From a virus (taxonomy: Duplodnaviria > Caudoviricetes), in the IMG/VR virus record IMGVR_UViG_3300016649_000263, positions 1 through 42,241 of that record: a stretch of 42,241 nt of DNA; one strand, 5' to 3'. The notes under the pieces were generated by a model. It saw only the letters and a list, made by a program, of their open reading frames with translations, ran no database searches and was not told the DNA's origin. The position numbers were made by a program, and so were the translations under genes. Shown piece by piece: positions 9,075 through 37,573 of this stretch; the first letter of the stretch is position 1, and each line of letters begins with the position of its first letter.

Positions 9075-9220
9075 ATCGGTAGTCTCAGTTAGTTATGTGA
9101 TGGTGGGTTTTGCTGCCTTACCGAAACCCACGCACGCATGGGCAGCGGTGAGACAACATTGAATTTCACATACAACTTTCCTTATAAAGGCCGCGTCTGC
9201 GGTGGTGTATGTCGTCCTGA

Positions 9221-9233
9221 TTGTTAAAGAGCG
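9221..9233 (-). promoter_or_regulatory. boxA antitermination element
   Basis: CGCTCTTTAACAA on the minus strand just downstream of pL. Confidence 0.75.
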
Positions 9234-9235
9234 GG

Positions 9236-9324
9236 TTACCATTTCGGTAACCGATATAGGTAATTTAAATTCATTTACGGGTGGTGTCAATCGTTAGCAA
9301 GAAATAAAGTTACCGAAAAGGTAA
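9236..9324 (-). promoter_or_regulatory. Leftward early promoter pL with flanking operators
   Basis: -35 TTGACA (9290-9285), 17 bp, -10 TAAATT (9267-9262); TTACC-N5-GGTAA at 9236-9250 and 9310-9324. Confidence 0.8.
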
Positions 9325-9392: not shown

Positions 9393-9989
9393 TTACTTAG
9401 TGCTTTCGCTCATGACGAAGTCGATGAACGATTTTATCTTCGCTTTGTCTTCTGCTGGAAGTGCTGCATACCGGCTGTGGTCATACTGAATGACCGATTC
9501 ATCATGCGGTGGGATCAGCATTTCATAGGCCCTGCGATTGAACACGGCAGCGATGGCAGCCAGGTTGTTAATCGAGATGCTCGCCTCGCGTTTCAGCAGG
9601 CGGTTAATCGTGGACTGGCCGACTTCTGCTTTCTCTGCAACGGCTGCCTGCGTCCTCAGTTCCTTATTGGCCTGCATCCACGCAGTCAGGTTATTGGCGG
9701 CGATGATGCCAATCTCTGTGTTGGCGTCCACTGGCTCAACATCTGCAGCAATCGACATAGCGTGATCGGTGTCCAGCCAGAACGCCGGTCTGCGGGCAGC
9801 AGCTTCTATCTTTCTGGCTGATGCGCCACCAATATTTTTTGCACTGGCCATCTCTGGTGAAGCCATCCAACGCGATATCAAATTAGGCTGGAAACCCAAA
9901 GCTTCCGCCATGCGGATCTGCCTACCGTCAAAGTCTTTCTGAATGATAGTTCTGAGGTTTTCTCTTCTGATGTCGTGGATGCTTTTCAT
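9393..9989 (-). CDS. Prophage repressor, SPC32H Rep-like (no S24 autopeptidase domain)
   Basis: 198 aa with two HTH-like regions (RRENLR...ISRW; TQAAVAEKAEVGQSTINRLL); divergent from cro and flanked by operators. Confidence 0.85.
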   Translation of the reverse strand: MKSIHDIRRENLRTIIQKDFDGRQIRMAEALGFQPNLISRWMASPEMASAKNIGGASARKIEAAARRPAFWLDTDHAMSIAADVEPVDANTEIGIIAANNLTAWMQANKELRTQAAVAEKAEVGQSTINRLLKREASISINNLAAIAAVFNRRAYEMLIPPHDESVIQYDHSRYAALPAEDKAKIKSFIDFVMSESTK

Positions 9990-16172: not shown

Positions 16173-16187
16173 TTACCGTGGAGGTAA
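16173..16187. promoter_or_regulatory. Operator overlapping the terS RBS
   Basis: TTACC-GTGGA-GGTAA; GGAGGT lies within it, ATG at 16193. Confidence 0.7.
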
Positions 16188-18271: not shown

Positions 18272-18297
18272 AATAAAAAGCCCGCACGCGGCGGGCT
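18272..18297 (-). terminator. Terminator of the antisense cassette
   Basis: AGCCCGC-CGCGT-GCGGGCT followed by TTTTATT on the minus strand. Confidence 0.8.
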
Positions 18298-18309
18298 GAT
18301 ATGATGATG

Positions 18310-18666
18310 TTACTGTTCGCTTAACTTCTGCTTCAGCAAGTAACCTTCCAGTAACCAGATTTTCTGCACGGCATTATCACGCGCAATCTTACGACCGATC
18401 TCCGCGTCAAAGTTCTCCGGGCTGGCGCAGGCTGATTCGCCGGTAACAGTGAAGCCGTTTTTCAGAACCAGAACACAGATGGTTAACAGATTCAGCGCAG
18501 GACTAACAGGGTCAGCCATTTCAGGAACAGGCCAGCCAGCACGCAAAGACGCACCAGCATTGATAAAGTGGCATTCAGAAATCACAGACTCAATGTGTTC
18601 TGGAGTAATGCGCGGTGCCGTTTTGCCTTTGGCCTGAATTTCCAACTCGATATCTTTGTCGCTCAT
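18310..18666 (-). CDS. N4 Gp49/Sf6 gp66 family protein (recalled as the family of the anti-CBASS sponge Acb4)
   Basis: APRIT...IES.I...LTICVLVLKNGFTVTGESACASPENFDAEIGRKIA..NA..KIW.LEGYLL signature; GAGGT RBS. Confidence 0.8.
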   Translation of the reverse strand: MSDKDIELEIQAKGKTAPRITPEHIESVISECHFINAGASLRAGWPVPEMADPVSPALNLLTICVLVLKNGFTVTGESACASPENFDAEIGRKIARDNAVQKIWLLEGYLLKQKLSEQ

Positions 18667-18683
18667 GGGTATACCTCGAGGTT

Positions 18684-18709
18684 AAAAAAATGCCCCCGGC
18701 GAAGGAGGC
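18684..18709 (-). terminator. Intrinsic terminator ending the RprA-seed sRNA
   Basis: GCCTCC-TTCGCC-GGGGGC-A-T7 on the minus strand. Confidence 0.75.
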
Positions 18710-18760
18710 GAAAGACTACACACAGCAATGGGATGTATCACGGTCACAGGTATTACCGGC
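18684..18760 (-). ncRNA. Putative Hfq-type sRNA carrying an RprA-like seed (5' end approximate)
   Basis: ATTGCTGTGTGTAGTCTTT (18729-18711) directly before a terminator, as in the 3' half of enterobacterial RprA. Confidence 0.6.
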
Positions 18761-19321
18761 TGAGCACTGTGGGCACCGGTGCCATCCCATACGGTGCTTA
18801 TTGGCTACTTCAATGCTCATGCGGTAACACGCTGGTTTACGTCCAGCAACGCTGAGTTCGGTGATCCGGTTCCAGTACCGGACTGCTCCAGATTTTAAAC
18901 CTTTGCAGGAAACAGGCACTGCCTGCGTTTATAAACAAACACCCATTAGTGAAACGGACTGTTGTGGTGTCCGGTGCTGATCTCCGGCTTCCGACTGTCC
19001 TGACCTTGTTCAGAGCCTGAGCCGTGGTCGTCACGCTCGTTTCCGGCTGGAAGCAATGCCGGTATGGGTGCTGGTCAGTTATTGCGCATCAGCCTGCGCA
19101 TTCACCACAACGGAAAGAGCACTGCATTTGACCACCTACGGCGCTTGCCAGTTGCATCGGTTCTCCGTCCTCATAACTAACGGTACTGGAGCAACTCGGG
19201 AGCATTCCGCATATCCGGTGCAATACTCTTACCTGTTGAGTGCCGGTTACGCTCCGGCGTCGTTTTTACGACCGTTCTTTTCACTGTGGTTTCATACCAA
19301 CTACCAATCATGATGACTCAA
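18750..19321 (-). ncRNA. Tandem structured ncRNA modules (putative processed polycistronic RNA)
   Basis: Abutting closing stems 19236-19321, 19112-19233, 18961-19111 and 18750-18830; irregular pairs are G-U on the minus strand; no credible CDS. Confidence 0.6.
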
Positions 19322-19324
19322 TAG

Positions 19325-19361
19325 TTACCATAAAGGTAACTGTACATCTAATAATTGTCAA
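19325..19361 (-). promoter_or_regulatory. Sigma70 promoter of the antisense cassette, -10 overlapped by an operator
   Basis: -35 TTGACA (19361-19356), 17 bp, -10 TACCTT (19338-19333); TTACC-ATAAA-GGTAA at 19325-19339. Confidence 0.7.
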
Positions 19362-37289: not shown

Positions 37290-37340
37290 GGTGAATCTCC
37301 TGTAATTTTTGGAGTCACCACCTGAGGTTCCAATCTCGCT

Positions 37341-37420
37341 GGTGGTGAGCTGAACAGGGTTGGAACTACCGGGATACAGGAAACCGGCCAGCCCGAAGGC
37401 TGCCCCGCCCAGCCCACCAT
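37341..37420 (-). ncRNA. C4-type antisense RNA (P1 c4/P4 CI family)
   Basis: ATGGTGGGCTGGGCGGGGCAGCCTTCGGGCTGGCCGG...GGTAGTTCCAACCCTGTTCAGCTCACCACC cloverleaf; GTTCCAA complementary to TTGGAAC upstream (37490-37498) and downstream (37326-37334); TCCTGTA complementary to TACAGGA at the BRO gene RBS. Confidence 0.85.
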
Positions 37421-37558
37421 TGAGATGTAGCTGTGCCGCACAAATAAAAAACACGCTGATGCGCGTGTATGTGCGCCCATATCTTTCGGGGTTCCAATCC
37501 CGGCACCAGATTTTGCTGGTGCATAACCACTATGGCGCATTATTTGCGGTGTGTAAAC

Positions 37559-37573
37559 TTACCAAAAAGGTAA
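37559..37573. promoter_or_regulatory. Operator upstream of the C4/BRO unit
   Basis: TTACC-AAAAA-GGTAA. Confidence 0.75.

Follow-up and report, generated by a model that had tools for sequence, protein, structure and literature searches.

What does a temperate phage make from 661 nt of antisense DNA that is headed by a promoter, is filled with apparent RNA stems and holds no convincing gene? The question arises from a region in the late part of a viral sequence of 42,241 nt (IMG/VR record IMGVR_UViG_3300016649_000263; "the window" hereafter is this whole stretch, as analysed). The window encodes an integrase, a repressor, RecT, a terminase, a head-tail connector and a GP7-type capsid protein, and the phage is a temperate podophage of the epsilon15 type, the terL-portal block matching phiV10 and epsilon15 (Uetakevirus) at 71-74%. 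Its closest relatives are Rahnella prophages: two Rahnella genomes contain prophage copies of the repressor with 92% and 83% identity, and the same operator pattern is present in both, and because of these two observations Rahnella is the presumed host genus. No tRNA or tmRNA was found in the window with ARAGORN or Rfam. In one Rahnella sp. prophage (L533, 2305-4746), the large terminase, 813 aa long, contains an intein-like insertion.

Three elements bear on how the region would be switched on:

19333 to 19361, minus strand: sigma70-type promoter, TTGACA-17-TACCTT, predicted start near 19326
19325 to 19339, no strand: operator TTACC-N5-GGTAA, covering the -10 box and the predicted start
9393 to 9989: phage repressor gene, likely binder of the TTACC-N5-GGTAA operator

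The promoter boxes lie at 19361-19356 (TTGACA) and 19338-19333 (TACCTT), which reproduces the coordinates of an earlier, sequence-only reading of this DNA that had placed the -10 box inside a perfect operator, and both hexamers are invariant in 5/5 aligned cassettes, with epsilon15 having the same layout. A generic promoter scan made no call at this position, because it demands A2/T6 and 9 of 12. The operator pattern has 12 matches in the window at no more than one mismatch (10 of them perfect), while the chance mean is 0.53 and a count of 12 was reached by 0 of 100 shuffles; copies flank the repressor gene and stand at operon heads. In addition, a repressor site is annotated at this very place in the epsilon15 record, where the leader also carries an annotated RNase III site. 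The repressor control suggested earlier is backed by the genome-wide operator and by this annotation, and the cassette operator is likely bound by the phage repressor, so that the cassette would be silent in the lysogen and would probably fire on induction, when repression lifts.

Another perfect operator, at 16173-16187, extends into the sequence that likely serves as ribosome-binding site for the terminase small subunit. At 9220-9290 there is an early-left promoter with an operator, followed by CGCTCTTTAACAA, which we take to be a boxA-like motif; no N gene was identified behind this promoter. Further on, Rfam places a C4 antisense RNA and isrK at 37338-37522, preceded by an operator at 37559 and with a Bro-N antirepressor gene downstream.

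Behind the promoter the array itself can be divided as follows:

19242 to 19272, minus strand: core of module A, two abutting hairpins, a mobile unit; the outer stem to 19321 is unsupported
19106 to 19241, minus strand: module B, an RNase III-type stem, predicted cuts at 19232/19231 and 19112/19111
18961 to 19111, minus strand: module C, a tRNA-shaped frame with a 94-nt cargo, its 5' strand shared with the foot of B
18831 to 18926, minus strand: module D, a conserved hairpin group with homologues in lytic N4-like phages
18750 to 18830, minus strand: module E, a second RNase III-type stem, predicted cuts at 18822/18821 and 18757/18756
18684 to 18731, minus strand: RprA-seed small RNA, a 19-nt exact match (18729-18711) and then an intrinsic terminator

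The earlier statement that the array holds no credible coding sequence stands, as no open reading frame with a ribosome-binding site is common to six close relatives, and a coding reading was ruled out on this ground. Folding of the whole 661 nt gave z = -1.40 on the minus strand and -2.78 on the plus strand (20 shuffles each), which means that the minus-strand folding energy of the region as a whole is not above chance; in fixed 120-nt windows, only E within the cassette stands out from coding flanks. Taken singly, B (z = -3.25), E (-3.94) and C (-2.29) fold in the way that had been proposed for an array of base-paired modules, whereas neither D (-1.76) nor the sRNA piece (-0.60) exceeds chance in energy, and in module A the hairpin core recurs but the outer stem is broken in close relatives. 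Since folding energy says little, the case for the cassette rests on comparison. This holds for the strand as well: the proposed argument from G-U pairs is indecisive on one sequence (minimum-energy folds have 6/5 such pairs on the minus/plus strand in B and 2/4 in E), while comparison backs the minus strand; one B stem position is U-G in 46, U-A in 7 and C-G in 7 of 60 cases, all of which pair on the minus strand.

No internal repeat family was found among the modules. The Rfam scan that had been called for gave nothing at the gathering threshold on the cassette, the best sub-threshold results being RprA and terminator-only matches, so the modules are without a match to a described family at that threshold. 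A Hatchet match was rejected as an AT-rich artefact on the plus strand. Complementarity between cassette pieces and the phage's own genome is not above chance, and a cis-antisense role against phage genes was discarded, the longest matches being 10-12 nt, which 24-99 of 100 shuffles reached. A 10-nt complement between the B cargo and D is also taken as chance, because the B cargo varies and D does not.

By sequence comparison, the modules do not form a single RNA family; they are constant frames that hold swapped cargo. Six close-relative cassettes have in common the promoter, A, D, the arms of B and E, and the last RNA. Within these arms they carry six different B inserts (46-102 nt between motif ends) and two kinds of E insert, the E cargo being swapped in L001, while the C slot contains the full C frame in three of the six (with two different cargoes) and a mini hairpin in the other three. 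The genes downstream of the homologous arrays were compared too: Gp49 follows in 2/6 and replacements in the others, including a 273-aa protein in L160 (with the same start in L126 and L165) and a 148-aa protein in L163; PADLOC on one replacement gene returned weak coiled-coil-type matches only. Recombination in the constant arms may be the route by which cargo is swapped. The array of structured modules described earlier is borne out in large part, although that description did not contain the frame-and-cargo design or the RprA 3' seed copy.

The design is clearest in module B. A scan with its 5' arm found at least 120 loci (approx. 610 stretches estimated), and among the matches listed the 3' arm of the foot follows the 5' arm in 122 of 128 hits, with 103 distinct units whose cargoes of 27-170 nt (median 48) fall into 60 greedy clusters, a generous number, as greedy clustering splits some related inserts. 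As this set was built on the arms, these are fixed in it; in a second set, collected by means of the window's own cargo, the lower foot is free to vary. It comprises 16 sequences: the window, two Serratia replicons and 13 hits out of 25 in the scan (the other 12 were judged chance and kept out of the alignment). Here 94.7% of 320 foot cells are paired, and two-sided changes occur in 4 pairs and 14 cells, where the cell count was reached by 0 of 500 shuffles and the pair count by 30 of 500, the shuffles ignoring relatedness. Because of this pairing and these two-sided changes we regard the B foot as an RNA stem, and the covariation expected earlier among homologues is found in it and in the stems of C. 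The cargo of the window is a conserved family (13 viral loci and two Serratia replicons) with two-sided changes of its own and no Rfam match; most of the other B cargoes come from a single locus or a few.

According to the double-cleavage rule of RNase III, the substrate is a long intramolecular stem in which S-S pairs lie between the cuts and W-W pairs beyond them, and a bulge upstream of C1 is tolerated (Altuvia 2018, PMC6212723); the B stem has a GG/CC doublet, an A bulge and A-U pairs in these places. Table S3 of the same source gives rnc-dependent ends in E. coli K-12 at 1649182/1649251, upstream of dicF (Qin), and at 1418556/1418485, upstream of kilR (Rac). In our comparison both pairs of cuts fall on stems of the B type, with GUUGU at the start of the 3' product in each case. 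This register puts the cuts predicted for the window at 19232/19231 and 19112/19111, and they would release a 120-nt RNA. The idea of a precursor cut into several small RNAs is therefore backed, by analogy, by the cuts that RNase III makes in vivo in homologous stems.

Several B loci carry further peculiarities. The 170-nt B cargo of L273 starts with a hammerhead-core look-alike, with no Rfam hit at gathering, and several of the B cargoes of L197, L172, L157, L182 and L226 have one or two T-loop motifs. A tmRNA-tag-like module, composed of a pseudoknot-like stretch and a short frame AN(D/E)...AA/VA-stop, is found beside B stems in 29 matches (L177, L178, L179, L183, L192, L204-L206, L273, L283 and others), and no Rfam tmRNA hit was obtained on the seven such loci scanned.

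Module E repeats the upper box of B and has a CG/CG doublet, as in the Qin and Rac stems; it has a 2x2 internal loop beside the predicted cut and no mapped homologue, its cut register being transferred by analogy from B, Qin and Rac. Homologues of D occur in lytic Schitoviridae, in one case directly before a tRNA cluster, and compensatory changes can be seen by eye in an alignment with two informative homologues, from which the R. rivi row was left out. The 3' arm of module A overlaps the foot of B; its second hairpin also stands before the B stem in IME207-type phages, and both A hairpins sit as cargo within the C frame of L234.

Module C consists of a 9-bp closing stem, a D-like hairpin (19100-19083) and a T-like hairpin (18988-18970), with complementary loops (GCUGAU/AUCAGC). 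After the 3' cut in B, GUUGUGGUG would become the 5' end and is predicted to pair over 9 bp with CACCACAAC; in other words, this cut would free the shared GUUGUG strand and let C close with a flush 5' end. The motif set for C has 292 hits (approx. 770 viral stretches estimated), of which 177 close into a frame whose T-like loop has 9 nt. We obtained 100 distinct frames with 45 cargo clusters, 81 of the 100 directly behind a B arm, and the frame ends are matched in 671 of 5426 E. coli genomes. The script required the D-like and T-like stems, whose percentage of pairing is for this reason no evidence; evidence comes from the alternative pair types, C-G/U-A and G-C/A-U in the D-like stem and C-G/U-A/G-C and C-G/A-U in the T-like stem, and two-sided changes are present in the D-like, T-like and closing stems (with controls that ignore relatedness). 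The loop-loop contact was not imposed, and 287 of 315 cells pair against a shuffled mean of 282.4, a score reached by 39 of 5000 shuffles; covariation here is modest, namely a double swap in two frames, possibly one event, plus G-U changes. The loops would likely form a kissing-loop elbow. In a metagenome scan for C there were many chance hits, the D-like hairpin being present in 66/117, and a handful of 63 end pairs were mis-closed and left in.

C has the makeup of a tRNA-shaped frame: its closing stem stacks on the T-like arm of 5 bp, and there are a D-like arm and the loop-loop contact; in the window, the T-like stem has a G-A mismatch at its base. A true tRNA was rejected, since there is no ARAGORN or Rfam tRNA call, the T-like loop has 9 nt and CCA is absent. 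Other frames have a true D-arm together with a true T-loop, tRNA-Arg(UCU) occupies the C slot in phiV10, SPN9TCW and others, and in the unrelated siphophage IME207 the A-B-C order stands ahead of real tRNAs. Two 125-nt tRNA-like frames with an expanded arm (L542 766-890, L543 757-881; 43 bits as tRNA) are intermediates between tRNA and frame C. The RNase III stem of Qin dicF-dicB contains a sister type of the C frame, and the sister frames L547 and L147 score just over the cut-off of STnc100 (RF02076)/PasD, whereas module C itself gives no hit to STnc100 or to C4 (RF01695) at E up to 10; C4 antisense RNA is likewise a closed phage RNA with a T-like hairpin.

The last RNA has its terminator at 18709-18692. 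Positions 18729-18711 are identical to chromosomal Rahnella RprA at 19/19 (chance approx. 5e-7). As RprA after processing consists of its last 47 nt (PMC9262595), the match starts near the processed 5' end. The 18-mer seed occurs at 73 viral loci in 51 distinct contexts, followed by a terminator at 71/73 and preceded by a CCCCTGA-like stretch at 23/73, and the seed is constant while flanks and terminators vary. It is also present in 7 species-representative genomes, in one of them likely by chance. In the two Rahnella genomes, a search for exact seed complements returned only rprA and the phage copy, and 1-mismatch complements were no more frequent than in the control. Scored as RprA (RF00034), the phage RNA reaches 34.6 bits, below the gathering value of 70, and the chromosomal Rahnella copies score 79.3 and 65.2 bits. 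It shares with processed RprA the seed and a terminator of similar length, but it is without a homologous 5' half and has its own promoter under the phage operator; absent are what we take to be the 5' features of RprA, an RcsB promoter and an rpoS-pairing stretch.

KilS of E. coli K-12 (b4833, Rac prophage; 1418405-1418502, L541) carries the RprA seed at 17/18, and it has the same order of B-type stem, RprA 3' seed and terminator, although its terminator is DicF-like and it precedes kilR. It is northern-verified and present in Hfq RIL-seq data (PMC8175672), a paper with 0 occurrences of RprA in its main text. An RNase E site is also listed for KilS, at a distance of 14 nt from the RNase III cut; taken in the downstream direction, this distance leads to the base that precedes the seed. 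There is also a precedent for a phage RNA that shares a host seed, namely StxS, in that case with the rpoS seed (PMC7547250). RprA targets include csgD, dgcM, hdeD, narP, rpoS and ricI (PMC9262595 among other sources), and by analogy the last RNA of the window would likely bind Hfq and act on host RprA targets.

Taken together, we consider it probable that this epsilon15-type temperate phage carries here a modular small-RNA cassette, which would be induced and cut by RNases into host-modulating RNAs. Host RNase III is predicted to cut B and E, and RNase E would likely trim the last piece, so that the products would be two cargo RNAs, both swappable, together with a tRNA-shaped RNA and an RprA-seed RNA. 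The cargo RNAs are most likely early-lytic host-modulating RNAs under diversifying pressure; the anatomy of the sequence, the fixed frames with exchanged cargo, the covarying stems, the exact seed and the K-12 cuts are observed, whereas transcription and cutting at the window locus are predicted.

Behind the array, the cassette closes with two more features:

18310 to 18666, minus strand: Gp49/Sf6-gp66 gene (PF13876, the Acb4 family), in a swappable gene slot
18272 to 18297, minus strand: final intrinsic terminator, hairpin 18297-18279

It could be argued that the array serves this gene (and the tRNAs in relatives) as a processing or stability leader, with the inserts as neutral filler. RNase III stems in phage leaders are well established, the cargo is different in all six close relatives and tRNA-Arg and tRNA clusters come after the same frames, as such a leader would have it; the conserved B cargo with its two-sided changes speaks against filler, however, as does an RprA seed that stays fixed between varying flanks and terminators. 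Moreover, a terminator separates array and gene. Among the best 80 Gp49 loci, 24 have the operator upstream and 56 are without it within 1.1 kb upstream, and in the operator-bearing ones a terminator stands before the gene in 24/24 and a B-type stem is present in 20/24. We therefore hold the leader explanation to be unlikely.

The Gp49 gene and both terminators (18709-18692 and 18297-18279) proposed earlier are borne out (PF13876, E 1e-32), and so is membership of the family that contains Acb4 (112.6 vs 27 bits). This could make the locus a dedicated RNA-plus-Acb4 counter-defence unit, whose RNAs would be decoys for anti-phage nucleases or sensors: 8/8 tested PF13876 homologues bound 3'3'-cGAMP (10.1101/2024.12.30.630793), the B-type stem accompanies most operator-bearing Gp49 loci, several cargoes have T-loops, and rapid swapping fits an arms race. 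Set against this, several contacts of Acb4 (SPO1 gp1.3) are changed in the window protein, which is of the same Pfam family and aligns to 9E4W at E 0.003: of the 7 SPO1 contact residues in the aligned stretch, F48, F62 and I66 are kept and E49, V56, Y57 and T70 are changed, N63 (a backbone contact) is D, and K36 and K81 lie outside that stretch. No link from the RNAs to a defence system was found, and we think this explanation very unlikely. The fixed RNA-plus-protein anti-defence unit of the sequence-only reading is not supported, given Gp49 in only 2/6 relatives, 56/80 loci without the operator and the terminator in between; Acb4-family cargo is common in this slot but optional. Gp49 itself may be expressed because the sRNA terminator is read through in part. 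That A or A-B-C would act as put-like cis antiterminators, passing polymerase through this terminator into Gp49, is suggested by a gene only approx. 17 nt behind the terminator, with no room for a promoter, and by the place of A, which in the window comes immediately after the start and in IME207 precedes B, but A hairpins are also cargo inside a C frame and B and C bear the marks of RNase III and tRNA-like frames, and we think this explanation very unlikely too.

Compared with known systems, the small-RNA cassette is closest to the Qin dicBF leader of E. coli K-12 (DicF, RF00039). The window is without DicF sequence (below the Rfam score), the RprA seed replaces the ftsZ seed, and the cassette is a stand-alone antisense unit in the late region; the swapped-cargo design goes unmentioned in those parts of the dicBF literature that were consulted. 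The conserved stems may already have been described by Faubladier (1994), whose title refers to dicF-like prophage sequences as a widespread group. In the late leader of lambda pR', the same B arms lie directly behind tR' (44786-44863; L293 337-414) and are followed by a closed frame, but the cargo differs from that of the window and the unit is Q-dependent and late. We take this leader to start at 44587, and its RNase III cuts reportedly lie at +209/+270 (Daniels 1988); cuts so placed agree with the B register and would excise 61 nt. This is close to the length of LPR2, an Hfq-bound RNA of ~63 nt near 6S (10.1101/2024.10.31.621285), which may be the excised top of the lambda B stem. Swapped cargo in stems, the tRNA-shaped frame and a phage copy of the RprA seed were not found in Rfam or in the openly searchable literature (bioRxiv preprints without their supplements). 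What the cassette adds to dicBF-type processed phage leaders is a design of sockets and cargo, with cuts predicted to the nucleotide and a link to RprA.

To hypothesize more broadly, and only tentatively, temperate enterobacterial phages, lambda included, might possess a Drosha-like system in which an RNase III foot and a frame that mimics the tRNA elbow are sockets for fast-swapped tiny RNA effectors, an unrecognised RNA arm of host takeover and counter-defence, with a large effector library of host-sRNA mimics, T-loop decoys, and ribozyme- and tmRNA-derived pieces. One design of constant sockets with dozens of RNA payloads and exactly predicted cut sites would then unite the lambda and Qin RNase III sites with the orphan sRNAs KilS and LPR2. 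It predicts that LPR2 is the B cargo of lambda and that KilS and many other phage RNAs mimic processed RprA, and if such mimicry is true, phages would fire part of the envelope-stress regulon of their host without an Rcs signal.
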